Source: Diplonema japonicum (taxonomy: Eukaryota; Protista; Euglenozoa: Diplonemea). From it: a stretch of DNA of 64,000 nt. Positions 7,512 to 60,870 of the stretch are shown piece after piece (the stretch's first letter is position 1; every line of letters begins with the position of its first letter). Under the pieces are notes generated by a model. That model was not told the DNA's origin. It saw only the letters and a program-made list of their open reading frames with translations, and searched no databases. The DNA lies in the NCBI GenBank assembly GCA_964019335.1, contig OZ025690.1, positions 372,001-436,000 on the forward strand, read 5' to 3'. Made by a program: the position numbers and the translations under genes.

Positions 7512-10500
7512 TCACGCCTTCTTCTCGGGCTTTGGAGGGCACCCTGCTTCTGCCTCAGCCTCGCTGACAAGCCTCTCCCTCGGCGGGGGACACAACTGGC
7601 AGATGAAGTCGAGGTTCTTGGAAGCCTTCTTGTACCAAACAAGAACATCCCATCTGTGAAGGACCTGTGCCTCCTCGTAGAGGCCATGCTCCCACTGGAT
7701 GCACATGGTCCCCTGCTTCGAGTTCTTCTTGTTGGTCCCCTCCCACCTCTGCTCCCCTTCGCCACCTGCGTTGTCGTGGTACAGCTCCTTGTCCTGCCCC
7801 AGTGACTCGATGAAGATGTTGAACGACTTCTCCTGCACCTTCGTCAGCGTTGCCTTGTGCGTCTCCTTGTAGATAGTTGTTTTATCCGCCTCCCACATCT
7901 GGAACTTGCTCTGCAGGTACAAGCAGTAGTACAGCACAGACGACTGGTCAGAGGCCTTCCGCGCCTCCTCCTTTCGTGTGTTGCACCGGAGTGCGATTTC
8001 CGACACGTCAGCCTCTGGCAGCAGCAAGTACCCGCTCTTGATGTCCTTCGGCGTCACTGAGATGTCCTCCTCGTTCACACCTGCTCGCAGCTTCTGTTTC
8101 ACCAGTGACTCGATTTCCAGGGCGCACTTCAGCACCCTGTGCACCACAAGATCCGCGTACCTTCTGATCGGGGATGTGAAATGCGTGTACAGGGGCAGGT
8201 TCAGCGCGAAATGGCTCAGTGAATGGTCCTGTGTTGTGGTGTGGGTTGTGTGGTGGCAGATACCGCAGACTCGCTCGTGCAGCAGTACTTGGCAAGCATC
8301 ATGCACCTGATGGTGAGTGCCCTGATGGCCTCGATCTGCGGATGCTTGATCATGTTCTCAAGCGAGTCACTGAGACCCTTCCCGCTCCCGACGTTGAGCT
8401 TCAGGTTCTGTTGCCCGAGAGCCTTCACAAGACTCTCGAACCTGGTGGCATCGGGCGGCGGGTGGTACCTGGCGAGGGCCACATCGGGGCAGTACTCGAT
8501 ACACTTCTCAGTCACCCTTGCATTCGCCATGACCATGAACTCCTCCACAAGCCAGTTGGCCTCGGAGGTCTCGTGCATGTGCCTGTTGGTTGTTGTTGTT
8601 TTGTTGTCATTGTCACATACCACCCCTTTGGTGCCATGTTGGAGTTGTGGTCTTCAAAATCAAAGTACATCTTTGCTTGGTTCAGGGACAGTGCACCCCT
8701 CGCATGCCTCGCTGCACGGATGTTCTCAGCAATCTTCCAAAGCCCTTTGACCGACTCCTTGATCTTCTCGATCGTCCACATGTGGCGAGAAGGAGGGATG
8801 TGGGCCAGGTCGATGCTCGCAGGATCGAAGTTCCCATCAATGATGCTCTGAGCGTTCTCGTAGGCCAGCTTGCACTGGTTCCTGATCACAGTCTGCCCCA
8901 TCCACTCGTTTGTGATATTCCCCCTCGAGTCCATCGTCCATTCCACCGTGAAGGCAAGTTTGTCACCCAAGGTGTTCAAGGAGCAGTGCTCCTCACACAG
9001 CTTCCTGGGAAGCATGGGAATCACCTTCTGAACAAGGTACACACTTGTTGCCCTCTTCAAGGCCTCTGCATCCAGCGCAGAGCCGAAGGGAACAAAGGTA
9101 GACACATCGGCGATGTGGACCCCGACACGGTAGTGCCCCCCGCCCAGGTCTTCACAGGACAGTGCGTCGTCCAAGTCCCTTGCGGTGGCGGGGTCGATTG
9201 TGCACACGAAGCGCTCATGCTTTGCACCCAGACGCATGTCTCTCCGTCCTTCCGCAAGAAGTCCAGCCTCGTCAGGGATCGGAACCTTGTCGGGGATCAC
9301 AGCCATGCAAGCCTCGTCGAACTCGTCGGTGTAATCAGTCCCGTTCTGCACAAGGATGGCACGCGACTCGACCTCCACCTGGTGCGCCGCACCGAGCAGC
9401 TTCAGCACCTTTGCCTGAGGGAAGAAACGCTTCTCCCCCCACTCTTTGAGCTGCAGGTACACCTGATGGATGTAGGTTAATGAAATTGTTGCATGCATAC
9501 CAAGTGCCCTTCTGCGTTGTCCATGAGTGGCTGGTATTGCCTCAGGTCGTTTTTATGCACCTCGATATGCGGATACCTGTCACGCTAGAGGGTGGGTCAA
9601 TGCGCATACTTTTCGTCATAGGAGGCGAACCTCACCCACGTCTTGTTTGCGGGGCCCATTGCACGTGCCACGTGCTGCGTCTGGTGGCCGGCTTTCCTGT
9701 GCAGTGTTGACGGTGGGAAGCTAACATGACATACCAGATGTGAACAATCCTCCCAGTCACAAGCTTGTTCTTGGCAAGTGAAGGCTTCGGGGCATCTGCA
9801 AGGGGGTCATCTTCGTTCCTGTTGATTTGTGGCTTTCAATTGTTCATCGCTGGTTTCATACTTTGCATTTGCTTTCTGCAAAACAGCAAGTGCCCTGCAC
9901 ACAGGCCTCTTCCCATCAGGGAGTTTCGACCTCTGGTCCTTGGGGAGCTTCATGTCTTCAGCCCTGCTGCGGATGTTCACACTAGTCACATCGGGAGCTG
10001 CTTCCCCCTTCCGCATCGCCTTCTCGTTGTCCTTCTCCTTCCACTCGGACTCGGGGCGGATCTCCACGATCACCACATCCCCCTGCAAGGCCCTGTTCCT
10101 GTCGCTCTTCTGCTCCACCAGGATGTCCACCCCGTCCCAGTGCCTCTCGTTCCGCACAAAGCAGATCGCACTGCTGTACTTCTTGTTCACGGCAAGCGTC
10201 CCTCTCAGGTACCTCCCGGACATCACCCCCTTGATCACCTCTTCACGGGAGATGTAAGGTGTGAAGGTCGGCTGGTTGTTGGTGGATGGTGTGCCGGGTT
10301 CGGAGCCGTTCCTCCTGGTTCCGGGTGTTATAGGAGTGCCGGCCTGCTGATACTGCTGCTGGGCCATGCTAGGCTTCCGGATGGGTTGGGTGAGGACGGG
10401 GGTTGTTGGTGTGCTCTTGTCTTTCTTGTCGCTGACGCCTTTAAGGATGTTGAGCACATTTTGGGTCATTGGGGCGTCGGAGGAGTTCGGCACAGCGGTA

Positions 10501-11850: not shown

Positions 11851-14579
11851 TTAATGGCGTCTTCCCTTCTTGTCAGGTGTCTCGGGCTTTGGAGGGCACC
11901 CTGCTTCTGCCTCAGCCTCGCTGACAAGCCTCTCCCTCGGCGGGGGACACAACTGGCAGATGAAGTCGAGGTTCTTGGAAGCCTTCTTGTACCAAACAAG
12001 AACATCCCATCTGTGAAGGACCTGTGCCTCCTCGTAGAGGCCATGCTCCCACTGGATGCACATGGTCCCCTGCTTCGAGTTCTTCTTGTTGGTCCCCTCC
12101 CACCTCTGCTCCCCTTCGCCACCTGCGTTGTCGTGGTACAGCTCCTTGTCCTGCCCCAGTGACTCGATGAAGATGTTGAACGACTTCTCCTGCACCTTCG
12201 TCAGCGTTGCCTTGTGCGTCTCCTTGTAGATAGTTGTTTTATCCGCCTCCCACATCTGGAACTTGCTCTGCAGGTACAAGCAGTAGTACAGCACAGACGA
12301 CTGGTCAGAGGCCTTCCGCGCCTCCTCCTTTCGTGTGTTGCACCGGAGTGCGATTTCCGACACGTCAGCCTCTGGCAGCAGCAAGTACCCGCTCTTGATG
12401 TCCTTCGGCGTCACTGAGATGTCCTCCTCGTTCACACCTGCTCGCAGCTTCTGTTTCACCAGTGACTCGATTTCCAGGGCGCACTTCAGCACCCTGTGCA
12501 CCACAAGATCCGCGTACCTTCTGATCGGGGATGTGAAATGCGTGTACAGGGGCAGGTTCAGAGCGAAATGGCTCAGTGAATGGTCTGCAGACTCGCTCGT
12601 GCAGCAGTACTTCGAAAGCATCATGCACCTGATGGTGAGTGCCTTGATGGCGTCTATCTGTGGGTGGTCAGCCATCTTCTCCAAAGAGCTCACAAGGCTC
12701 TTCCCGCTAGTGATGTCCATCTTGATCCCCTGTGCACCAAGAGCCTTCACAAGACTCTCGAACCTGGTGGCATCGGGCGGCGAGTGGTACCTGGCGAGGG
12801 CCACATCGGGGCAGTACTCGATACACTTCTCAGTCACCCTTGCATTCGCCATGACCATGAACTCCTCCACAAGCCAGTTGGCCTCGGAGGTCTCGTGCAT
12901 GTGCCTGTTGGTTGTTGTTGTTTTGTTGTCATTGTCACATACCACCCCTTTGGTGCCATGTTGGAGTTGTGGTCTTCAAAATCAAAGTACATCTTCGGTG
13001 CGTTCATTGAAAGTGCACCCCTCGCATGCCTCGCTGCACGGATATTCTCAGCAATCTTCCAAAGCCCTTTGACTGACTCCTTGAGCTTGTCGATCGTCCA
13101 CATGTGGCGAGAAGGAGGGATGTGGGCCAGGTCGATGCTCGCAGGATCGAAGTTCCCATCAATGATGCTCTGAGCGTTCTCGTAGGCCAGCTTGCACTGG
13201 TTCCTGATCACAGTCTGCCCCATCCACTCATTTGTGATATTCCCCTTCGCGTCCATCGTCCATTCCACCGTGAAGGCAAGTTTGTCACCCAAGGTGTTCA
13301 AGGAGCAGTGCTGCTCACACAGCTTCCTGGGAAGCATGGGAATCACCTTCTGAACAAGGTACACACTTGTTGCCCTCTTCAAGGCCTCTGCATCCAGTGC
13401 AGAGCCGAAGGGAACAAAGGTAGACACATCGGCGATGTGGACCCCGACACGGTAGTGCCCCCCGCCCAGGTCTTCACAGGACAGTGCGTCGTCCAAGTCC
13501 CTTGCGGTGGCGGGGTCGATTGTGCACACGAAGCGCTCATGCTTTGCACCCAGACGCATGTCTCTCCGTCCTTCCGCAAGAAGTCCAGCCTCGTCAGGGA
13601 TCGGAACCTTGTCGGGGATCACAGCCATGCAAGCCTCGTCGAACTCGTCGGTGTGGGATATGTTATTCTGCGTGAGGACAGCACGCGACTCGACCTCCAC
13701 CTGGTGCGCCGCACCGAGCAGCTTCAGCACCTTTGCCTGAGGGAAGAAACGCTTCTCCCCCCAGTCTTTGAGCTGCAGGTACACAAGGTACCCTTCTGCG
13801 TTCTTCAACAGTTCAGGGAAGGGCTTCAAGTCGTTGACATGCACCTCGATATGAGGGTACATCTCGTCATAGGAGGCGAACCTCACCCACGTCTTGTTTG
13901 CGGGGCCCATTGCACGTGCCACGTGCTGCGTCTGGTGGCCGGCTTTCCTGTGCAGTGTTGACGGTGGGAAGCTAACATGACATACCAGATGTGAACAATC
14001 CTCCCAGTCACAAGCTTGTTCTTGGCAAGTGAAGGCTTCGGGGCGTCTGCAAGGGGGTCATCTTCGTTCCTGTTGATTTGTGGCTTTCAATTGTTCATCG
14101 CTGGTTTCATACTTTGCATTCGCCTTCTGCAAAACAGCGAGTGCCCTGCACACAGGCCTCTTCCCATCAGGGAGTTTCGACCTCTGGTCCTTGGGGAGCT
14201 TCATGTCTTCAGCCCTGCTGCGGATGTTCACGCTGGTCACATCGGGAGCTGCTTCCCCCTTCCGCATCGCTTTATCGTTGTCCTTCTCCTTCCACTCGGA
14301 CTCGGGGCGGATCTCCACGATCACCACATCCCCCTGCAAGGCCCTGTTCCTGTCGTTCTTCTGCTCCACCAGGATGTCCACCCCGTCCCAGTGCCTCTCG
14401 TTCCGCACAAAGCAGATCGCACTGCTGTACTTCTTGTTCACGGCAAGCGTCCCTCTCAGGTACCTCCCGGACATCACCCCCTTGATCACCTCTTCACGGG
14501 AGATGTAAGGTGTGAAATGCTTGACAGCGCTCAGAGACGAGTTCTTGGGGCTGGTCTTCGGGGAGATTCTCGAACTCAT
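11851..14579 (-). CDS. DIS3L2: DIS3L2-like RNase II/RNB exoribonuclease, copy 2 (short N-terminus; 3 introns)
   Basis: Near-identical to copy 1 over most of its length, with the same catalytic motifs. Three GTATG...CAG introns join the track ORFs 14058-14687, 12834-13922 and 11851-12945. Confidence 0.88.
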
Positions 14580-37105: not shown

Positions 37106-37680
37106 TTTATTTCACTCTTCGTCATTTTCTTCACTCACTAGGGGCCTCATTATTTAACGCGAAATGGCCATTATTTAACGCGAAATCGCCATTATTTAAC
37201 TAGTTAAATAATGAGATTTTGCAGTTAAATAATGGCCCTTCAGAGTGAAATAATGGCCCTTCAGAGTGGAAAAATGAGTCTCGCCGTGGAAAAAAATGCA
37301 CCCAACCCCTTGAAAAATCTTTTTGGGGTGGGGGTATTTTGACTATTTTTGGCCATCTGAGGCCATTCCAGCCCTTAAAAGTGGGAATAAGTGCCTTACT
37401 TCCCCTTTAAATGCCACGGCGAAATAGCAACCCCATATTACCTTAGGAAACTCCCTAAAAAGGCTGACCTGCGTGAAAAAAAACAGCAGTGAAAGCAGTG
37501 AAGAGTGAGTGACTCAAATGACGAAGAGTGAAATAAAACGACTTACTTGCCGCCAAATGAGCCATTATTTAACTCTCGTTACCGGTTTTTTTGCACGAGG
37601 GTCCGCAGGGCCCTCGTGCAAAAAATTCGGGAACTCGAGTTAAATAATGACTCATAATTTGTTGGCAATAAATAGTTATT
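37106..37680. mobile_element. Non-autonomous IR + terminal-hairpin element H2
   Basis: Perfect 22-bp IR TTTATTTCACTCTTCGTCATTT (37106-37127 / 37516-37537); ~135-nt hairpin at 37541-37677; end TAAATAGTTA. Confidence 0.8.
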
Positions 37681-38359
37681 ATTTCACTCTTCAGAAATTA
37701 CTTCACGCACTGGGGGGCCCATTACTTCACGCTAAATTTCATTACTTCACGGTGAAATAATGGCCTGTTTTCCGTGAAATAATAGGGGGTTTCCGGTAAA
37801 TAATATGCCTCAGTAGGCCAATTTTTGCCTCGGTTCGGTTCCCAGTGGGGCTACTTTTTCCTCTCAGTTTGCTAATTTCCCCCAGGCTCAGCTCAATTGG
37901 CCAACTTTTGCCTCGGCTCAGTTCCAAGTTGGACTACTTTTTCCTCCCAATTTGCCCACTTTTGGCTTGGCCTTGTTCCCAGTTTCTGGGGTAACTCTTC
38001 TGTGGGTAAGGGTAACTTAGTCAGCTTACCCAAGCTCCCCAAAAGACTTCAAAATACCGAAGGAGCAGAAAAAAAGGAGCCAGCGGCCGCGCTAGGTATG
38101 GGAAGGCCTGATTAGAGATGGTGACAGTGGCAATGCCAGCGACAGCGGCAGCTCTTAGTCAACAAAAGGAGGAAAAACAACTTGTATTGTAACCTTTGTA
38201 ACCCCTCTCTTGTTGTACCCCTTGTCACCCTGTTGTGCCCCTCGTGGTGAAGTAATTTCAGAGTGTCGTGAAATAAAACCACTTACCTACCGCCAAGTAA
38301 TGCTTTACCGACCTCGAGGTAACGGTAAAGTCATTACTTGTTGGCAGTAAATAGCTATT
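37679..38359. mobile_element. Non-autonomous IR + terminal-hairpin element H3 (head-to-tail with H2; duplicate of H4)
   Basis: TATTTCAC...GAAATTACTTCAC and its imperfect inverse at ~38247-38278; hairpin at 38281-38355; end TAAATAGCTA. Appears identical to 58854-59534. Confidence 0.85.
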
Positions 38360-38833
38360 CTTTTCATTACATCGAAGAATGAGAAAATAATAACAAAAAA
38401 AAGAGCGTGCAAAACGTGCCAAAAAAAAAAAAAAAAAAAAAAAAAAAGTTCACGTTCATTTTTTTTTTTTTTTTTTTTCCTTTTACATGGGGGATGCACA
38501 AGAGGAGAGGTGTCCTCTATTTTTTTGAAGAAAAAAAAAATCCCGATGATGGGGGGGAAGGGGAAGGAGGCCTTAAACAGTTACATTTTGTTCCCTTGTC
38601 CAAACTGGGAAATAAAAGCAAAGGGCGGGAGCGGAGGGGAGGGGGGGGAGTGTTACATGGGCCCGGAGGTGAGGGGGGAACAAAAAATAAAAGAAAAAAA
38701 AGGGAGAATGAAAAAAAAAAAAAAAAAAGAAACTGAGAAATGATGGTTTACCCACCTTAAGATTATACGTTACATCATATTAGTTTTTTTTTTCTTGAAA
38801 AAATCAAAGCAAAAAAAAAAAAAAAAAAAAAAA

Positions 38834-38871
38834 TCACTATGATAGGAACGAAGTGGTTAGCAACGGCCCGC
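38834..38871. repeat. Dispersed 38-nt motif, copy A (TCACTATGATAGGAACGAAGTGGTTAGCAACGGCCCGC)
   Basis: Identical to 42352-42389; 2-nt deletion variant at 60835-60870. Confidence 0.9.
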
Positions 38872-41503: not shown

Positions 41504-42246
41504 GGAAAGAAAAAAAAGTACAAGAAACTAGGCACTCACCTCAGCTCGAGGGGCCTAGCTCTCCCTGATTAAAAAAACTTTTTTTTTTTTTTTTCCTGTG
41601 CCAGTTAACAAATTTTATAGCCTGTCGACCATGAGTTGTGTGTTTAAAAAAAAAAAAAATTGTATAGCGGGAGGAATTTCTTTTGATCTTGATTTTTTTT
41701 TTTTGAGGTTAACTTTCTACAAATCCCTTCCCTTTTTCGAGAAGGGAGGGAAGGAGAGGGGAGGGGAGGGGGAGATTGGAGATCCATTGCCCACGCACTC
41801 GATTTAACCATTGCATGAGAAATGAATAGGGTGGGAGGGGAGGGGGGTTTTTTTTTTCTCCCTTCCGAGCACCCTAAAGGGCCTGGTGGGAAAATCTATC
41901 TTTTTTTTTGACGATCTGAGCATGTGTCAGAAAAATCTTCGTTGGCAGAAAGGATTTTGTCGCCTTTTCGTGTGTAGGTGTAAAGAAAAAAAAAAGTATA
42001 AAAAAGAAAGAGGGGGGGGGGGGGGGGGAGTTTGAATAGGAAAACATATCTCAAAGAAATGAAAAAAAAGTGAATTACACAGCTTCTTAAAAAATAGAAA
42101 GAAAGAAAAAAAAAAGTGAATCGCATTCCAAAAGAAAAAAAATTATACTTCACCGAAATAAGGAAGAAGAAAACAAAGAAAACAGGCCCGGAGAAGAGGG
42201 GAAGGGGGGGGAATCCCTGCCCCTGATCAAAGCGTCGTTAGAATTC

Positions 42247-42288
<42 letters not shown>

Positions 42289-42351
42289 TAAAGCACTTTC
42301 AATACAGATACAGCTTGCACCCTCAATCTTCCAAAAAAAAAAAAAAAAAAT

Positions 42352-42389
42352 TCACTATGATAGGAACGAAGTGGTTAGCAACGGCCCGC
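42352..42389. repeat. Dispersed 38-nt motif, copy B, abutting the LINE 3' end
   Basis: Identical to copy A. Confidence 0.9.
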
Positions 42390-42447
42390 GAAAAAAAATT
42401 TGATAAATTTCGGTGTGCGGGTGGGTGCTCACCGTTCAGGGAGAAAT

Positions 42448-45400
42448 TCACACTAATCGGTCACCGTTCTGCGGTTGCTGTCTGGTGCCTGCGGTGGCTG
42501 TTTGTCGCGATGAGATGGACGGCATCTGGGCGAGAAACATTGCTTGGAGTCGTGCTAGGTAGGGGGCGGTTTGGCTCGAGGAGAAGAGTGGTCTCCTGTC
42601 GTAGCCGTGTGTCGTCGGGCCCCCAAGATGTCGAAGGGTGTGTACCCTTGTCTTTGCGTTGGCGGGGAAAGCATTCTTCCCACTCTTTGCTGTGCATTTC
42701 TGAATACGTCCTAAGATGTATCGCATCCTTCCAGCCTTCTCTGTGAGCCAGTCCTGGTCGTCGAGGGGTCCAGCCAAGGACTGCCGGGTGGCCTGCTCAT
42801 AGTCTACTGCGAGCTCCATCGTCGTGACGGACGTCAACTTCCTACCTGCGTACCATCTTAGGCTTTTCAGCCACCTGAGGACGCTCTTCATGTAGAACAT
42901 TAGGACCTTTCCCGACGCTCCGTTCGATTTCAACAGCTCCACTGTGGGCACAGTGTGCTGCTTCCCCGTTGTGATCTCATCCCACGGGTTGGTGGTGAGG
43001 ATTCTGGTGCTCCGTTCAGCCGCTCTGGCGTCTCGTCTTGACACGACATCCAACAGGTATCGTTGCACGACTGCCGCCTGTTGCTTCGCAGCCCCCGTTG
43101 CGCCCCTTGGAATGATCCCGTGGAGGGCGGTCACTGCAGGTAGGTCACTTCGCGTCATCCCGCCATATCTTTCGTTTGTCAGGGCAGCTCTCGCTGGTGC
43201 ACATTCCCATAGGGCGTGCTCCGTGACTTCTGTCGTCGTCTGGCATCGATGGTCGCAGACGTCGCACGCAAGAGACGAGCTTTCCACACCCTCACGTTCA
43301 TCCAATTGCTTCCCCCACACTCGAGGGTGTACCGTGAACACTGCACCGCTGATGATCCGCCGCAGTCTGTACGATATCAGCGGTCTCCGTGACTGGAGCT
43401 TCCTCCACCAGGCGTTCGTGGACGGACATGCACCCGCTTCCATTCCAGCAAAAGACGACCTGCCGTGGATCAATTCCTTTGCAACAGCCGGTCTGATCGC
43501 CTGTCTTACTTCATGGCGTCTCGCACTGGGCACCAGAGCGCGCAAACCTTCAATGAAGGACCACCCCTTGTTCAGGAAGGGTAGCCACCTCTTCAGCAAG
43601 ACCCCTAGCGGCCCCCTCTCCTCGTCGTCCTCTCGCTCCCGGTACAGTGTAACAATCTCATTGACTCGCTGCCACAGTTGTGGGGAGGTGAGGCTTTCTC
43701 GCATCAGGCAGTTCACCGTGTTGTAAACAATCTTCGCTTGTGGATATGCTGTGTGTCCAGGTAACAGCACATTGAGCACAGCCATCGGGGATCTCATCCT
43801 GAAGCGCGGTCCCCACAGGGAAGTCACCGTCGCTGTACAGAGCTTCTTCAGCTGGTTGTCAGACGGCGCAGCGTAGGTCGTACCGTATAGACAGGATGGT
43901 AGCACAGTGCCCGTCAGCATTGACGCCTTGTTCCCGAAGCTTAATGGCAATGCACCAAGCCGGGACAAACGGCCTTCGGCGGAATGTAGCTTGTCCAAAC
44001 TATGTTTCCCGTTCATGTTCAGGATCACGCCAAGCGCCTTGATCCCCTTCGTCACTCTGAACGATGAGCCTGTGCACTTCAACCAAGGGCCGATCTCATC
44101 CTTCGTCGAGAATGCTTGTGACTTGTTTTCGTTAAGGCGCATGCCTGTCCGCTCGCAAAACTCGATTGTTTTGTTGGTCGCTCTCTTGAGTACCTCGACC
44201 AAACGCGCAAGTAGGTACGCGTCGTCCGCGTACGACAGCGATCGCGAGCCAGGTACCTCAGCAATCACGCACTTCACCATCACTGACACCAGAGCGTTCA
44301 CCAGGATGACGGAGATTGGACACCCTTGGAGAATTCCATTTGTCACGTGGAACTCGGAACCCACGCCAGTAGGGAAGCGGAAACGTCTTTTGAGGCCTGC
44401 GTACATCGCTTTGAGCGGGGTCAGTATCCTCTGGTGCAAACCCAGGTCTTGCATAAGCCCGAACGCTACTTTCTGTGGCACCCTGTCGAAGCACTTGACG
44501 AAGTCCAGTGCTATGCCGTTAAGAGGGGTGTTGGTCAGCATCGCCGTCTCCAGCTGCGTGCTGAGCTCCATCAGGATGCTGTCCGTCCCGTGACGTGGTC
44601 GAAAACCATGCTGCGAGTCGTCCGCCCATTTCTCTTGCCATGGCGATATATCACGCAACCTGGCACAGGCCCACAGTCTGTAGACCGCACTCGTGACTGT
44701 GATGGGGCGGTGGTTGAGCGGAGTCCTCTCGCCTCCCTTCGGGATCAGCGTAACCAACGCCGTCAGGAGTGCCTTCGGCCACTTCCCTGTCACCTCGATG
44801 GCGTTGAAGAGCATCGCCCACGCATCCAACAATACATTTGGCATAGCGCGAAGTTCTGCCATCCTCCACCCATCAACTCCCGGTGCTGTCCTCGTCGATT
44901 TCTTGGCCAGAACTGCTCTCAGATCAGCCCCTGTCAGTGGCTGGAGCACCATGTCATGCGTCGAGATGTATGGCCCGTATCTAGCCTTGAAGGCCTCGTA
45001 CGATGGTTCTTCATGCCCTTCACCGTACATCTGGAGCACGCCGTCCCATTCCGCGTGCATCATCCTGTCCATCTCGTCGAGGTCTGCGGTCAGCACTCCG
45101 CCGCTCTCCACTGCCTGCGCCGCTGACGTAGAAGTGTTTTTCACAAAGGCGGTCATCCCCCTCCGCTCCTCCTGGAACTGGGTGTTGATCCTCGCCTCGT
45201 ACTTCTTCTCCCGCTCCACTCTCGTGTCCTTTGCGATCTCGCGTAGTAGCGAGGAGAGGTTGTCGTCTAGCAGTTGAAGTCTGGTGACAATCGACTCCAG
45301 GTCATCCTTCAGCAAGTTCCTATCAAACACTGGAGGGTTCGGCAGTTTCTCCAGCAAACTCAGAGCATTCGCCCAAGTCTTCAACAGAACTACTGGCATG

Positions 45401-46536
45401 TTGCACACTTGTCCCTTGTCAATCATCACCTGGATTTCCGCGCTGATGTGTGCAAGCTTCCTCTGCAAACAGGCAATCGACTTCTGTCTACCCACCGCTG
45501 CGCCCGTGGCTTCCTTTACAGACTTGGCCGACAGGCATTTCTCCTTGGGTTTGCGCTCCTCGCCCCTCCCTCGGAAAGTCTTCTGTTGCTCCATCGGCAC
45601 GCCTGTGATGCAGTGTCTTTCCGAGACGTCAGCCAGCACACGGTATGCGCCGTCGATGTCCTCAAGTTTTTGGATGAATCTCTCCGCCTGTAGCAGCTCA
45701 ATCACGTGGTCATCACTAGCAGTCGACACCGGCAGTTCCTTCGGGATGAAGTACTTGCGTGTCTTGCTCTTGAGAGTAGGGATACACAGTTTGATGGAGA
45801 GGCATCTGTGTTCGTTGGTATACACCGTGTCGTGGACCCACGCCTTCTGTAGTCCCGCCGCAGCGATCGGGTTCATCAAGACGTAGTCGATGCGTGTCTT
45901 TGTGTCAGTGGCTCTCCTCACAAAGGTGTGGCTCGGCCTTACCCCGTCTTTCTCGGCCTGCATTGCTGCTGCATCCACCCAGTCACACCCAACCGCCTGC
46001 TGTAGTACACCTGATTGCGACACCTCGGTGTTTAGGTCCCCCGCGACGATGATAGGAACATCTCCCAGGGCACATCTCATCTCGTTCAGCACCTTGTTCA
46101 AAAGTGTCTCACGCTGGTGTTTGCCGTAACTTCCCGAGTGGCAATATACCACAATGAGGTGGAGCCACATGTCTCGTCCGTCCAAGTTGATCATAGCATG
46201 GACCCACCTGTTGCCGTCGTCCATCGAAGCGACTGCTTTGACTATCGCCGGCCTGCACCGCTGTACTAGTATGCCGACTCCACCTCTTTGTGCTTTGTCG
46301 GGAGCAGCAAGTCCATCGACCACGATACCGGGCTGTGGGTTTCCCCACAGCGCACGATACCTGCCGTTGTCCTCAACATGCCTCCCAATCATGTGTTGTC
46401 CGTGTGCGGTCAGCTTCACTTCCTGCAAGCACGAGATGTCGCTCTCCATGGCCAACACCTCGTCCACCTTATTGCTCAGGGACCCCACATTGAGAGTTGT
46501 GATTGTGAGCGAATTGGGGTCCCTAGCTCCACCCAT
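42448..46536 (-). CDS. LINE ORF2: AP endonuclease + reverse transcriptase + CCHC zinc knuckle
   Basis: TLNVG, CLQEV, GDLN, RIDY, EH (APE); APGVDG, LIPK, RPI, QHGF, LDFVKCFD, QGCPIS, YADD (RT); CDVC...H...C. No RNase H seen. Confidence 0.95.
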   Translation of the reverse strand: MGGARDPNSLTITTLNVGSLSNKVDEVLAMESDISCLQEVKLTAHGQHMIGRHVEDNGRYRALWGNPQPGIVVDGLAAPDKAQRGGVGILVQRCRPAIVKAVASMDDGNRWVHAMINLDGRDMWLHLIVVYCHSGSYGKHQRETLLNKVLNEMRCALGDVPIIVAGDLNTEVSQSGVLQQAVGCDWVDAAAMQAEKDGVRPSHTFVRRATDTKTRIDYVLMNPIAAAGLQKAWVHDTVYTNEHRCLSIKLCIPTLKSKTRKYFIPKELPVSTASDDHVIELLQAERFIQKLEDIDGAYRVLADVSERHCITGVPMEQQKTFRGRGEERKPKEKCLSAKSVKEATGAAVGRQKSIACLQRKLAHISAEIQVMIDKGQVCNMPVVLLKTWANALSLLEKLPNPPVFDRNLLKDDLESIVTRLQLLDDNLSSLLREIAKDTRVEREKKYEARINTQFQEERRGMTAFVKNTSTSAAQAVESGGVLTADLDEMDRMMHAEWDGVLQMYGEGHEEPSYEAFKARYGPYISTHDMVLQPLTGADLRAVLAKKSTRTAPGVDGWRMAELRAMPNVLLDAWAMLFNAIEVTGKWPKALLTALVTLIPKGGERTPLNHRPITVTSAVYRLWACARLRDISPWQEKWADDSQHGFRPRHGTDSILMELSTQLETAMLTNTPLNGIALDFVKCFDRVPQKVAFGLMQDLGLHQRILTPLKAMYAGLKRRFRFPTGVGSEFHVTNGILQGCPISVILVNALVSVMVKCVIAEVPGSRSLSYADDAYLLARLVEVLKRATNKTIEFCERTGMRLNENKSQAFSTKDEIGPWLKCTGSSFRVTKGIKALGVILNMNGKHSLDKLHSAEGRLSRLGALPLSFGNKASMLTGTVLPSCLYGTTYAAPSDNQLKKLCTATVTSLWGPRFRMRSPMAVLNVLLPGHTAYPQAKIVYNTVNCLMRESLTSPQLWQRVNEIVTLYREREDDEERGPLGVLLKRWLPFLNKGWSFIEGLRALVPSARRHEVRQAIRPAVAKELIHGRSSFAGMEAGACPSTNAWWRKLQSRRPLISYRLRRIISGAVFTVHPRVWGKQLDEREGVESSSLACDVCDHRCQTTTEVTEHALWECAPARAALTNERYGGMTRSDLPAVTALHGIIPRGATGAAKQQAAVVQRYLLDVVSRRDARAAERSTRILTTNPWDEITTGKQHTVPTVELLKSNGASGKVLMFYMKSVLRWLKSLRWYAGRKLTSVTTMELAVDYEQATRQSLAGPLDDQDWLTEKAGRMRYILGRIQKCTAKSGKNAFPANAKTRVHTLRHLGGPTTHGYDRRPLFSSSQTAPYLARLQAMFLAQMPSISSRQTATAGTRQQPQNGDRLV

Positions 46537-46575
46537 GAAGATGTCCCTCCGGATGTCTTCATGGCTGGCGTCCCT

Positions 46576-48978
46576 TCAGTTGAACTCGTCAGGGTCATGT
46601 TCGATTGGTAGGATGGGGGTCATAGTGTTAGCTATGGCCATGTGCACGTCAGGTGTGGCCGCACATGTCGGTGTGCCGCCGGGCAGGTATATCGGTGTCA
46701 TCGAACCCGTTGCACTCGTGGGGACAAGGGCACCCGAATGTGCCTTCTTGCTGGTCGTCGTGTCGTCGCATTTCCTCTTCTTGTCCGTGCGCTTCGCAGT
46801 CTGGATGTCCTGCTGGATAGACTGGACAGTCTTAACCAGCTCGGACACCGCCACAGCCACCGCATCCAACCTCTCGAGACGTGTTGTTACCATCTCCATC
46901 TGCCTGCCGAGAGCTTGCATGTTCTGCTCCATCGACTTCACTAGCGAGATGGTCGCGGCAGCCTTCCTCTCCATGTCCACCACTCTCGCTTCCATCGCTT
47001 TCCTCTCCTGCTCGTGCTCCAGCTCTTTCTTCCGCGCCCACTCCTCGAAAGCGTCGACAGACGCCATCGTTTTCGTAGCAGGTGCTGGCGCGTTCGGTGG
47101 GGGTAGAGCCTCGGCTACCGGCGTTGAGTGCGTCGCAGGTGTTGACGCAGCGTGGTGTGTTGACGCCTGCGTGTCCGACACTGGCGCAGGTGTAGGCGCG
47201 GATGATGGGTTCGCCTGCCCGGCTTGTCTGCCCCATATGGCGTTCGGCGGCAATGTGAATACGGCCTTATTACTGTCACTCGCGCCCTTCTTGTTCTTCT
47301 TCTTCTTCTGCAGGTCACCCTCCAGCGGCTGGATGGTCCAACGCGTGCCCTGGACATTCAGAACCAGACCTCTCGGTTTCGAGCACGAAGTCACGGCCCA
47401 GGACTGTTTTTCGCCAAACCTATGCAGCCTCTTCCTCACCGTGACCGGCCATCCCGACCGTTTCAAGCGGTCTTCCAGCTCGAGGCCGTTCATCGAAGAG
47501 GGCACCCCTTGTACCTCATAGTGCTCGCCGTCGAGCAGTGTCGCTGCTGTCGCTGTCACCTTCAGATCGGCATGTCGGTCTTTGAGCACCCGCCTTGCTG
47601 TGTCAAGCTCGGCTTTCGGTACCCTTACCCCGTAGACGACGGACTTGCCCGACTTCTTGAAGGTCAGTCCCCATCCGCACACTTCACGCCTGAACAGCAG
47701 TGCCGCTTTCAGTGCCGTGCCCTCCAGCCACAAAACCGGCAGGAGATCGCGTGCTTCCCACGGTTGGCGCACAAACACGCCGTCCTCGCCACTGCGCATG
47801 AGGATCGACTGGACATCGGTCTTCATCACCGTGATTGGGACCTCGAAAACGCCGTCCCGCTTCCTGCCTCTCTTGGTGAGGTACCGCCCTGCTCTCTCCC
47901 TCAGCCATGTCAATACTCTCGACCTGGCCTTCTCGGCGTCCAGCGATGTTTGAGTAACCAGATAGAGTTCCGAGGTGCAGGTCTCCGGCTCCTCCAGCTC
48001 CTCCTCTTCCTCCATCTCCTCCTTGTTTGCGTCCGGCATCGCAGGGTGACCATTGCGGGATGTCACCTGCAGGCGTCTGCACGTCTTCCCGCGCCCTTCG
48101 TTCGTGCTCAGAAGGACCTCAGCCTCCTCGCCGCAGAAGTAGGGGAGACGTCCCCATGAAACGACCGTTGCAGCCGGCGCGCCCCTTAGCCACTCCGCTG
48201 CCAACCGTTCAGAGCCTTGCGGGACAAGGTACACCGCCCGCTCCGGCTGTGTCTCCGCCCCTTCCCACTCCCGCACGTGCACGGGCCACTCGTCCTCGGC
48301 AAGGCATGCGATGATGGCCTTGCGTGCCGGCTTGCCCTGCTCCTTCTTCTTCCCGTCCTTCGCGCCCTCGCTGCGGATGGGGAGTGGGATCCTCACCGGC
48401 GGCACATACGCTGTAGTGGTAGGCATCTTCGAGTCCTCCCCTTTCACCGCGCAGACGTAGTGGCCCTCCACATAGCCCAGCCATAGCGTGGCCGTGTCTG
48501 GTACCTCATTCCTACTCCCCGGCTCGAAGCAGCTCAGGGTGAGGATGTCATCCCTTACAGCAAAGACACAGATCCTGCGTCCCATCACCACGGACATCGT
48601 GCTGACCGTCAGCCTGTCCGCCCACGTTCCCGAAAGAGTTACCAGCCTCTGGTACTCCTTCCACGCCGCAGCCTTCTCCCCTTCCTCCACCATCATGAAG
48701 GAGGAGTAGTCCTTCCCCGCCAGATGAGAGGCCACCACCTCCCGCAGCGCCCCCGCCTCGTCCCTCGCGCCGTGCACCGCGTACGACACCGCTTCGAAGA
48801 AGCACTCTCCCTGCCTTCTTCCGGTGTCTATCACCTTCCAACCCTCCAGCCTATTGGCCAGATCCTGCACCGCTTCCCTCGTCTTCGGCCTGGTGGATTC
48901 GCCGGACTTCCCCTTATGAGAGGAAGCCCGCCCAGGAACCGCCGTCGTGGAGGCTCCACCTCGGCCTTGCGGTGGCAT
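46576..48978 (-). CDS. LINE ORF1: N-terminal OTU-like cysteine protease, central possibly RRM-like region, coiled coil
   Basis: GECFFEAVS (Cys box), LREVVASHL, Y...SGTWAD, ICVF, LWLGYVEGHYVCAV (His box); C-terminal heptad region. Confidence 0.85.
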   Translation of the reverse strand: MPPQGRGGASTTAVPGRASSHKGKSGESTRPKTREAVQDLANRLEGWKVIDTGRRQGECFFEAVSYAVHGARDEAGALREVVASHLAGKDYSSFMMVEEGEKAAAWKEYQRLVTLSGTWADRLTVSTMSVVMGRRICVFAVRDDILTLSCFEPGSRNEVPDTATLWLGYVEGHYVCAVKGEDSKMPTTTAYVPPVRIPLPIRSEGAKDGKKKEQGKPARKAIIACLAEDEWPVHVREWEGAETQPERAVYLVPQGSERLAAEWLRGAPAATVVSWGRLPYFCGEEAEVLLSTNEGRGKTCRRLQVTSRNGHPAMPDANKEEMEEEEELEEPETCTSELYLVTQTSLDAEKARSRVLTWLRERAGRYLTKRGRKRDGVFEVPITVMKTDVQSILMRSGEDGVFVRQPWEARDLLPVLWLEGTALKAALLFRREVCGWGLTFKKSGKSVVYGVRVPKAELDTARRVLKDRHADLKVTATAATLLDGEHYEVQGVPSSMNGLELEDRLKRSGWPVTVRKRLHRFGEKQSWAVTSCSKPRGLVLNVQGTRWTIQPLEGDLQKKKKNKKGASDSNKAVFTLPPNAIWGRQAGQANPSSAPTPAPVSDTQASTHHAASTPATHSTPVAEALPPPNAPAPATKTMASVDAFEEWARKKELEHEQERKAMEARVVDMERKAAATISLVKSMEQNMQALGRQMEMVTTRLERLDAVAVAVSELVKTVQSIQQDIQTAKRTDKKRKCDDTTTSKKAHSGALVPTSATGSMTPIYLPGGTPTCAATPDVHMAIANTMTPILPIEHDPDEFN

Positions 48979-49502
48979 TTTTGTCGTCGTGACTTTTGAT
49001 TATCCGAACCCAGTGTTCCCTCAAAAAAAAAAGGAGAGAAAGTTGGGGGTGCAAGGTTGTACCTTCTGAAAACCGGGTTTCACTTTTTTTTATTAACCCC
49101 TTCCCCGAAACGGTGCTTGTCTCCTTCTCTGTCTCTCTCTCTCGCTGCCCAACGAAGGGCGTCCTAATGCGTTGTTAAGAAGAGAAGGGTGGGCACCATA
49201 CATCGATCTACCAGAAAAAAAAGGGGGGAGGGGGGGGAAATACCAAAACCAATACAGAAACGCAGAAATCCGGCAGGAAAAAAAAAAAAAAAAAACTAAG
49301 TGGAGCAATAGCACCCACATTAAACACAACGCAAAGTAAGCATTTTGGAAAAATGAAGGGGAAAAAATAGGGGGGGGGGAGAGGATATAAGAGGAAATAG
49401 TTTGTAATTTTTTTTTTTTTTTTTTTTCGTTACCTCATTTTTTTTTAAAAAAAAAAAGATTCTTTTTTTTTTCTTCTTCTTTCTAGTTGCATAACTTTAA
49501 TG

Positions 49503-49556
<54 letters not shown>

Positions 49557-49752
49557 ACTCCGCGGGTGGAAGAATGGGGAAAGGGCACTAAGAACCCCAC
49601 GAAGCCCCCCAACCCATTTGATCATGTTTGTGTTTCTTCTTTTTTTTCCCCCCCCTCCCTCTTTCTTTTGCTCATCAGTACATAAAAAAAAAAAACAAAA
49701 AAAAAAAAACATACATTATATAGGAAAAAAAAAAAAAAAAAAAAAAAAAAAA

Positions 49753-58853: not shown

Positions 58854-59534
58854 TTATTTCACTCTTCAGAAATTACTTCACGCACTGGGGGGCCCATTAC
58901 TTCACGCTAAATTTCATTACTTCACGGTGAAATAATGGCCTGTTTTCCGTGAAATAATAGGGGGTTTCCGGTAAATAATATGCCTCAGTAGGCCAATTTT
59001 TGCCTCGGTTCGGTTCCCAGTGGGGCTACTTTTTCCTCTCAGTTTGCTAATTTCCCCCAGGCTCAGCTCAATTGGCCAACTTTTGCCTCGGCTCAGTTCC
59101 AAGTTGGACTACTTTTTCCTCCCAATTTGCCCACTTTTGGCTTGGCCTTGTTCCCAGTTTCTGGGGTAACTCTTCTGTGGGTAAGGGTAACTTAGTCAGC
59201 TTACCCAAGCTCCCCAAAAGACTTCAAAATACCGAAGGAGCAGAAAAAAAGGAGCCAGCGGCCGCGCTAGGTATGGGAAGGCCTGATTAGAGATGGTGAC
59301 AGTGGCAATGCCAGCGACAGCGGCAGCTCTTAGTCAACAAAAGGAGGAAAAACAACTTGTATTGTAACCTTTGTAACCCCTCTCTTGTTGTACCCCTTGT
59401 CACCCTGTTGTGCCCCTCGTGGTGAAGTAATTTCAGAGTGTCGTGAAATAAAACCACTTACCTACCGCCAAGTAATGCTTTACCGACCTCGAGGTAACGG
59501 TAAAGTCATTACTTGTTGGCAGTAAATAGCTATT
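58854..59534. mobile_element. Element H4, duplicate of H3
   Basis: About 680 bp matching 37679-38359 at a constant offset of 21175; flanks unrelated. Confidence 0.88.
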
Positions 59535-59574
59535 TTTTTTTCGTTATAGTATCATATGCTGTACCCGTTTGTCC

Positions 59575-60834: not shown

Positions 60835-60870
60835 TCACTAATAGGAACGAAGTGGTTAGCAACGGCCCGC
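60835..60870. repeat. Dispersed 38-nt motif, copy C (2-nt deletion)
   Basis: TCACTA--ATAGGAACGAAGTGGTTAGCAACGGCCCGC. Confidence 0.88.

Follow-up and report, generated by a model that had tools for sequence, protein, structure and literature searches.

How the second open reading frame (ORF2) of LINEs is translated has been described as an open question (PMC3894237, PMC3708506). Stop-codon readthrough has already been proposed for such elements, namely for the non-LTR Group 3 of Paramecium tetraurelia, where readthrough of the ORF1 stop was suggested from consensus sequences (Guerin et al. 2017, PMC5405496). Among other two-ORF LINEs, SART1 has an RNA structure past the ORF1 stop and in L1 the ORF2 AUG is dispensable (PMC5972666, PMC3894237, PMC5009743), while L1Tc and Ingi carry a 2A/StopGo recoding signal just before the APE domain (PMC3708506, PMC3894237). 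Outside LINEs, 3′ structures follow the in-frame stops of alphavirus nsP3-nsP4, furo/tobraviruses, Drosophila kelch and, as a pseudoknot, MuLV gag-pol (PMC3159437, PMC13517186); known readthrough stems begin 7–12 nt past the stop, and kelch combines such a stem with UGA-A (PMC3159437).

Here we describe a LINE in a 64,000-nucleotide stretch of the genome of the marine protist Diplonema japonicum (contig OZ025690.1, positions 372,001 to 436,000; hereafter the window). Like Paramecium Group 3 (PMC5405496), it is an APE-type LINE whose two ORFs share a frame; unlike Group 3, for which the text of that report gives no stem, covariation or experiment, its ORF1 has an OTU fold and its relatives use 2A. 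With the readthrough signals that have a 3′ structure it shares one in-frame stop before the polymerase, apparent compensatory changes and a stem, some 12 bp long, that begins 7–12 nt 3′ of the stop. It differs in being a LINE, known here from sequence alone, with a UGA-AGG context and a local stem with a 4-nt loop that is followed by a second hairpin. This context fits none of types I–III (UAG-CARYYA, UGA-CGG/CUA, UAG-G; PMC13517186), and the UGA-A of kelch is a precedent outside these types (PMC3159437). In contrast to SART1 and L1, there is no overlapping UAAUG, the spacer of 39 or 33 nt is open and in frame, and the AUG is buried or absent. In contrast to the 2A/StopGo elements, the window lacks 2A and has a stop and a predicted hairpin at that position after a full ORF1.

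Results

Organization of the element

The element lies on the minus strand and is an APE-type non-LTR retrotransposon by its ORF2 endonuclease and reverse transcriptase (Table 1). Sequence and translations confirmed what the sequence-only reading of the window had reported, a single UGA between two long ORFs that share one frame. ORF1 ends in ...DEFN-TGA (TGA at 46578-46576). The frame then runs through 13 stop-free codons (RDASHEDIRRDIF), reaches the Met at 46536 and continues to 42451, so that ORF1, the UGA and the rest of the frame sum to 2176 codons (800+1+1375). UGA and AUG are 39 nt apart and do not overlap. UGA is a normal stop here, since it ends 3 of 12 host ORFs as well as ORF2 itself; Paramecium belongs to a ciliate clade with another genetic code. 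The element matches D. japonicum transcripts, and a transcript copy of ORF2 differs at 3 of 1362 residues. A GD(V/I)ExNPGP-like 2A motif before the endonuclease is absent from the window and from P0002, P0003 and P0116. Five weak Rfam matches (E up to 5) in 42000-49700 included no SECIS, although a diverged element could escape this search. A comparison of the flanks for a target-site duplication gave just two common words, of 9 and 12 nt, neither convincing.

Table 1. Features of the element and of the ORF1-ORF2 junction (positions in the window).
Feature	Position	Strand	Remarks
LINE ORF1, 800 aa	46579..48978	-	OTU-like cysteine protease fold at N-terminus, probable RRM-like domains, long coiled coil, C-terminal DEFN
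OTU-like domain	48400..48867	-	alignment and predicted structure
In-frame UGA, context AAC-UGA-AGG	46576..46578	-	sole stop separating ORF1 and ORF2
Purine-rich spacer, 7 nt, stop to stem	46569..46575	-	sequence
Hairpin 1 (3 bp + 9 bp + 3 bp, GGAG loop)	46529..46568	-	fold prediction; re-lettered two-sidedly in sister family
Out-of-frame AUG in 5′ arm of hairpin 1	46476..46562	-	opens 28-codon ORF overlapping ORF2 AUG
ORF2 AUG	46534..46536	-	paired in 3′ arm of hairpin 1; U at -3; UCG in sister family
Hairpin 2 (10-11 bp, 27-nt loop)	46477..46525	-	directly after hairpin 1
Next in-frame AUG, codon 43 after stop	46447..46449	-	also in sister family
LINE ORF2, 1362 aa counted from Met	42448..46536	-	TGA stop
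APE endonuclease in ORF2	about 46497-45868	-	Pfam Exo_endo_phos E 2e-9
Reverse transcriptase in ORF2	about 44745-44023	-	Pfam RVT_1 E 5e-21

The OTU assignment of ORF1 combines a Pfam match just under the cutoff (E 1e-4) with a structure model of the domain (pLDDT 91) that matched OTU structures at E 6e-8. All 12 aligned rows have the OTU Cys, and at least 90% have the His; the customary acidic residues before the Cys and after the His are not kept. The model of the whole protein has a mean pLDDT of 59.5 and includes a 97-residue helix (639-735); structure matches to RRM proteins were weak (E about 1e-4, poor TM). The exact ORF1 was not found in the protein collection searched and a word-based search with it gave no matches; a HMMER search returned 13 proteins.

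Predicted structures after the stop

Two consecutive hairpins are predicted downstream of the UGA. In the first, 46568-46566 pair with 46529-46531 and 46564-46556 with 46533-46541, in addition to an inner 3-bp stem. Every pair has a probability of at least 0.99. As in the earlier prediction, the hairpin begins 7 nt past the UGA and has the ORF2 AUG inside its 3′ arm. The 41-nt hairpin has a folding energy of -23.6 kcal/mol (z -6.0, 0 of 200 shuffles equally stable), values inflated by trimming the segment to the hairpin. The 100 nt after the stop rank second among 129 windows of the element, both by z and by energy, and synonymous-codon resampling gave an equally stable fold in 4 of 1000 draws for 99 nt and in 12 of 1000 for 48 nt. 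Both hairpin 2 (46525-46515 paired with 46477-46487) and the first AUG past the stop, which is at 46562 and out of frame, had been missed by the sequence-only reading; two listed sister-family changes in the arms of hairpin 2 preserve pairing (U-G to C-G, A-U to G-U). The in-frame AUG at codon 43, for which the sister-family evidence includes one contig's loose end, lies downstream of an endonuclease Asn (codon 29) shared by all 15 aligned proteins.

Apparent conservation of the stop, the stem and the frame

Contig records from runs X9, X12, X14 and X15 were compared over 46450-46600 (X13 does not reach the junction), leaving aside one X9 contig end of depth 3 whose 22 letters are unlike the rest. 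The depths of the X9 contigs, 3439 and 6608, are not copy numbers. Five records cover the UGA without a listed change (X9 records 7 and 10, X12 record 1, X15 record 6 and X14 record 4), and none of the aligned contigs has a sense codon there, as a nonsense mutation confined to this copy would have predicted. By a 31-letter bridging rule, two of the five bridge the stop: X15 record 6, with 9 differences in the 282 letters of its full length, and X12 record 1, which may be the source of the window itself; X14 record 4 extends just 8 letters past the UGA and both X9 records have fewer than 31 letters on one side. The ORF1 tail P0147, which comes from a different Trinity gene of D. japonicum and is 53% identical, also terminates with this DEFN, even though the 30 residues ahead of it diverge. 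Together, these records suggest that the stop is conserved over copies and relatives.

In the sister family, seen in X9, X12 and X14, the outer-stem arms read GACUGG and CCAGUC. All five altered letters of the 3′ arm (46535-46539), read by hand from the contig difference tables, have changed Watson-Crick partners, so that every changed pair is two-sided, and two further changes (46554, 46542) close the internal loop. By our own arithmetic, such five-pair covariation would arise about once in 1000 under random partners; the five pairs may not be independent, since a single template-switch event could re-letter the whole stem. The stem changes also convert the ORF2 AUG to UCG. The stem starts 7 nt after the stop in the window and apparently about 6 nt after it in the sister family, and these two families suggest that a stem with compensatory changes is maintained at about the distance of known readthrough signals.

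The alignment of X14 record 4 runs through the stop and lacks 6 letters between 46558 and 46571. On this one contig, the distance from the UGA to the AUG position is 33 nt, compared with 39 nt in the window, a multiple-of-3 difference by which the sister frame would be kept, and the spacer residues of the two families are alike (DIRRDI vs DVRRDV). Four of the 17 differences in this record are unlisted, and one reading of them places a second UGA in the stem, where X9 and X12 have UGG. From one contig end and one protein end, we infer that the sister family keeps both the UGA and the frame; P0147 probably belongs with the AUG-less ORF2. The evidence for frame conservation consists of two families, each with a 1-in-3 probability by chance. 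In a third family, P0116, a Met (MSGGA) occupies almost this position, which gives an AUG before the endonuclease in two of three families.

Wider relatives

Of 71 homologues that match the endonuclease, 13 have a 2A-like motif at this position. In a quick, unrooted tree of 59 rows (L010 was omitted for lack of RT coverage), the window's family falls within a 99-supported group that contains all 13 2A proteins, and elements with in-frame stops occur at four separate places, with the order of gain and loss not given by the tree. Sequence before the endonuclease is available for ten loci: four have an in-frame TGA, four have no such stop and two (L011, L052) have an ORF1-like sequence in another frame. 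In the distant relatives L001 and L010, whose ORF2 frames are broken, an in-frame TGA is followed by 42 codons without an in-frame AUG and then by a 2A motif; L005 and L006 likewise show an open frame and then an in-frame TGA. The junction fold in distant relatives is unexceptional (z -0.3 to -1.3).

OTU and endonuclease-RT form one ORF in P0006, P0010, P0025, P0059 and P0061. Across Diplonema families, ORF1-like proteins are separate ORFs, and in the P0149 cluster 10 of the 11 members have a common C-terminus; the Trinity label "complete" was not treated as proof of an upstream stop. P0008, considered as a one-frame ORF1-2A-ORF2 protein, was dropped as its 587-aa N-terminus fails to match the ORF1 profile. 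Family pattern scans gave no hits in metagenome contigs or in viral contigs, a protein scan of viral contigs found no relatives among 73 stretches, and the 50 metagenome and 5 genome loci included no close family.

Discussion

The best reading of this junction, which we hold with moderate confidence, is that the ORF2 enzyme is made by programmed readthrough of the UGA, probably stimulated by the hairpin. Most ribosomes would terminate at the UGA and release ORF1p; a smaller share would decode it with a near-cognate amino acid and go on to make the 2176-aa ORF1-ORF2 protein, which would set a high ORF1:ORF2 ratio. The predicted hairpin, 6–7 nt downstream, may act on the ribosome to stimulate this event. 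We favour readthrough because the UGA and the frame appear to be kept in the sister family, where the stem covaries and the AUG is lost, because in the window an out-of-frame AUG comes ahead of the ORF2 AUG, which is itself paired and carries U at -3, and because an in-frame TGA recurs in L001, L010, L005 and L006. The earlier preference for readthrough over initiation at the AUG is partly supported by what appears to be kept and lost at the junction, on evidence that comes from two families and short contig pieces.

Termination-reinitiation is a possible but rather unlikely alternative, by which ribosomes would stop at the UGA, be retained by the hairpins and restart, at the stem AUG in the window's family and at a non-AUG codon in its sister. 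As in SART1, a structure, here a predicted one, follows the stop. Neither the stem nor the loss of the AUG alone separates readthrough from reinitiation, because SART1 depends on the structure past its stop and L1 is described as starting ORF2 independently of the AUG; caliciviral reinitiation also tolerates start-codon changes (PMC5972666, PMC5009743). The contrast with characterised LINEs drawn in the sequence-only reading is therefore weaker than stated. The Met just before the endonuclease in two of three families and the separate ORF1-like ORFs across Diplonema families also fit a restart. However, stop and start lie 39 nt apart here, a restarting ribosome would meet the out-of-frame AUG first, and reinitiation needs no in-frame spacer, multiple-of-3 change or alike residues, yet the two families show all three.

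We give little credence to translation of ORF2 from its own mRNA, arising by spliced-leader trans-splicing or from a start inside the hairpin, with the hairpin serving packaging or RT binding. In its favour, AG dinucleotides lie directly upstream of the ORF2 AUG, any co-transcribed genes of Diplonema would be resolved by trans-splicing, and transcription of gene groups is likely in Diplonema (PMC10161547). Against it, a pyrimidine tract is absent before the ORF2 AUG (at most 5 T in 20 nt, compared with 9–19 at 11 other starts, one of them misplaced), and the first in-frame AUG in a sister-family transcript would follow the invariant endonuclease Asn. The idea that the element was once a single ORF, like its one-ORF OTU-endonuclease-RT relatives, whose dead copies carry the UGA as a nonsense mutation, or that the UGA is a selenocysteine codon or reassigned, is scarcely credible and largely refuted, as both ORFs are intact with a near-identical transcript copy, the ORF1 of a divergent sister terminates at this residue too, host genes end in UGA and the Rfam matches held no SECIS.

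If readthrough is true, this junction would represent a structure-stimulated readthrough signal in a LINE; in the literature searched, we found no such signal proven by experiment. It would also mean that, at one and the same site, a single LINE clade switches among stop readthrough, direct fusion and 2A StopGo. The junction is compact, its naturally AUG-less and re-lettered sister provides a built-in control, and the genus has a sequenced model species.

OTU proteases cut after Gly-Gly. Readthrough might be combined with a retrovirus-like Gag-Pol strategy, doubtful as we consider it, in which the OTU protease of ORF1 would free ORF2p from the polyprotein by cutting after the Gly-Gly of GGA, replacing the 2A StopGo found at this position in related diplonemid LINEs. 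A GGA motif is present at the ORF2 start in three families (FMGGA, QSGGA and MSGGA); of the relatives in which OTU and endonuclease are directly fused, just 1 of 9 has GG there. Separately, GG is found in four of six usable short-start proteins, from which we draw no inference.

One frame divided by a single UGA

ORF1 and ORF2 of the LINE occupy one frame that is interrupted by a sole TGA (see table). ORF1, translated from the Met at 48978, comprises 800 aa and ends in DEFN, and the 13 codons between the TGA and the ORF2 Met at 46536 are all open. The sequence-only reading had described a single UGA followed 7 nt on by a stem-loop that buries the ORF2 AUG, and window sequence, translation and predicted fold bear this out; a second predicted hairpin lies directly 3′ of the first. 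The 100 nt 3′ of the stop rank second among 129 windows of the element by both shuffle z-score and energy, and synonymous resampling gave an equally good fold in only 4 of 1000 draws. Past the stop, the first AUG lies in another frame and begins a run of 28 codons. In the window DNA, UGA serves normally as a stop: ORF2 and three of the 12 host ORFs tested end with it.

Coordinates of the LINE and of other features in the window
Feature	Position	Strand	Basis
ORF1 open frame	48999-46579	minus	window sequence and translation
OTU-protease domain of ORF1	48400-48867	minus	predicted structure
Sole TGA between ORF1 and ORF2 frames	46578-46576	minus	window sequence
ORF2 open frame, same frame as ORF1	46575-42451	minus	window sequence and translation
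27-nt motif, three exact copies	38845-38871, 42363-42389, 60844-60870	minus	
686-nt repeat, two copies	37679-38364, 58854-59539		
Dis3/RNB nuclease gene, tandem duplicate	7523-10265, 11880-14516		

ORF2 contains an APE endonuclease and a reverse transcriptase (RT), and its closest homologues are diplonemid. P0003, a protein from a Diplonema japonicum transcriptome, has the same starting Met and matches at all but 3 of 1362 residues, which places transcription of the family in D. japonicum or a very close species. ORF1 is modelled with an OTU cysteine-protease fold (pLDDT 91; best structural match E 6e-8) and, with low confidence, probably also holds RRM-like domains and a long helix. In D. japonicum and D. 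papillatum its homologues exist as proteins of their own; within one D. papillatum cluster, 10 of 11 members have the C-terminus in common. A literature search on OTU domains in non-LTR ORF1 proteins found no paper on that point.

Conservation of the junction

The junction is a real, conserved feature. In contigs from five public sequencing runs, from which rare variants are lost, the UGA is covered by five records, all without a listed change at it: two from X9 and one from X12 (possibly the window's own source) without differences, one from X15 differing at 9 of 282 letters over its whole length, and one from X14 belonging to a more distant family. The rule of 31 letters on each side of the stop is satisfied by the X12 and X15 records only. 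P0147, an ORF1 tail of 53% identity encoded by another Trinity gene, has the same DEFN end after diverged residues. A sense codon in other copies had been named as an outcome that would speak against the readthrough idea; the unchanged UGA and the end of P0147 make a copy-specific nonsense mutation unlikely.

A sister family with common junction substitutions occurs in X9, X12 and X14, and X15 has its downstream part. Its letters, read by hand from difference and loose-end tables, give outer stem arms GACUGG and CCAGUC. All five differing letters of the 3′ arm (46535-46539) lie opposite a changed Watson-Crick partner; covariation of this kind, here between two families, is what the sequence-only reading had proposed to seek. 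Where the window's stem has an internal loop, the sister's is closed by changes at 46554 and 46542. The resulting stem has 12 pairs, one bulge and the GGAG loop of the window. A single template switch could re-letter the whole stem. The spacer, too, would keep a multiple of 3: X14 record 4, which stops 8 letters beyond the UGA and leaves 4 of its 17 differences unlisted, aligns through the stop with 6 letters omitted, so the sister spacer would be 33 nt and in frame. One reading of the unlisted differences would place a second UGA in the stem, where X9 and X12 read UGG. Through the stem changes, the sister family has UCG in place of the ORF2 AUG; its next in-frame AUG is codon 43, past the endonuclease Asn (codon 29), a residue shared by all 15 proteins aligned. 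P0116 represents a third family; it begins MSGGA, its Met lying close to the position of the window's.

Proposed readthrough and alternative routes to ORF2

We favour, as the somewhat more probable route to ORF2, readthrough in which the hairpin would stimulate ribosomes to pass the UGA. Passages of PMC3159437 describe readthrough stems beginning 7-12 nt past the stop and, for kelch, a UGA-A context that works with a 3′ stem. The window's stop context lies outside the classical viral types as presented in parts of PMC13517186. The junction may resemble, in how it works, the viral stops that are read through with the help of a 3′ stem, by likeness and not by established membership of that class. 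The main rival, termination-reinitiation, is a possible but distinctly less probable explanation. According to passages of PMC5972666 and PMC5009743, SART1 reinitiation also depends on structure 3′ of the stop, and loss of the AUG is tolerated by L1 and caliciviruses; against this rival, two families keep the frame, change length by a multiple of 3 and have similar spacer residues, which is why we prefer readthrough. Production of ORF2 from its own trans-spliced mRNA appears improbable, since there is no pyrimidine tract and the model fails for the AUG-less sister family. A dead copy or selenocysteine is disfavoured and most unlikely.

As a bolder extension, the ORF1 OTU protease might conceivably release ORF2p by cleaving after GGA, a motif that three families share; among 16-residue windows in five family proteins, 0.2-5.7% contain GGA. 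OTU proteases prefer Gly-Gly.

For the Group 3 LINEs of Paramecium, readthrough has already been put forward on the basis of consensus sequences (passages of PMC5405496). Our literature search, with most subscription papers outside its coverage, found no experimental demonstration in a LINE. The passages found of the D. papillatum genome paper list LINE ORFs and do not discuss their translation (PMC10161547).

Junctions in wider relatives

The endonuclease profile matched 71 of the 113 ORF2 homologues. Ahead of this domain, 13 of the 71 carry a 2A-like motif, as known in LINEs (passages of PMC3708506 and PMC3894237), and 16 a distinct PGEGP motif; nine have a long upstream part with neither, some with a fused OTU, while 10 start close to the endonuclease and 23 inside it. 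In a quick, unrooted RT tree of 59 rows, from which no order of events can be read, P0002, P0122 and P0116, which make up the window's family, have support 100 within a 99-supported group of 32 rows including 13 of the 14 labelled 2A.

Sequence ahead of the endonuclease was available in 10 of 55 fetched loci. L001 and L010, from one family, have an in-frame TGA, then 42 codons without in-frame AUG, then a 2A motif (L001:97-225; L010:685-813); readthrough and StopGo could act there in series. In-frame stops also follow open frames of 244 codons in L005 (TGA-CTG) and 79 codons in L006 (TGA-CAA), with in-frame AUGs later. No such stop was seen ahead of the endonuclease in L004, L008, L013 or L051, and ORF1-like sequence lies in another frame in L011 and L052. 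L001, L010 and L052 are broken copies. Junction folds among these relatives are unremarkable; the loci show in-frame junctions recurring in the group without demonstrating recurrence of the hairpin.

The PGEGP motif, FDxTLG(Y/F)PGEGP in 16 homologues (P0084-P0104), sits just ahead of the endonuclease at the 2A position of other families. The six rows tested form one 99-supported group, and the motif may be a 2A-like signal not yet described. In L005, L006, L011, L013 and L051 the endonuclease is immediately preceded by another motif, RVGEAx(N/H/T)PG. L051-L055 are eukaryote-type LINE contigs within prokaryotic MAG records, probably through binning contamination.

Other features of the window

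The 27-nt motif, with 0 copies expected by shuffling, is part of a repeat of ~45 nt followed by a T run, and one copy lies ~60 nt beyond the ORF2 stop. The motif may represent a small mobile or regulatory sequence, or a target for insertions. The 686-nt repeat (99.9% identity) contains a 64-nt direct repeat. Both copies of the Dis3/RNB gene (92%) have an in-frame TGA at matching positions as well as shifts of frame that split them, which suggests introns, pseudogenes or another recoding site.
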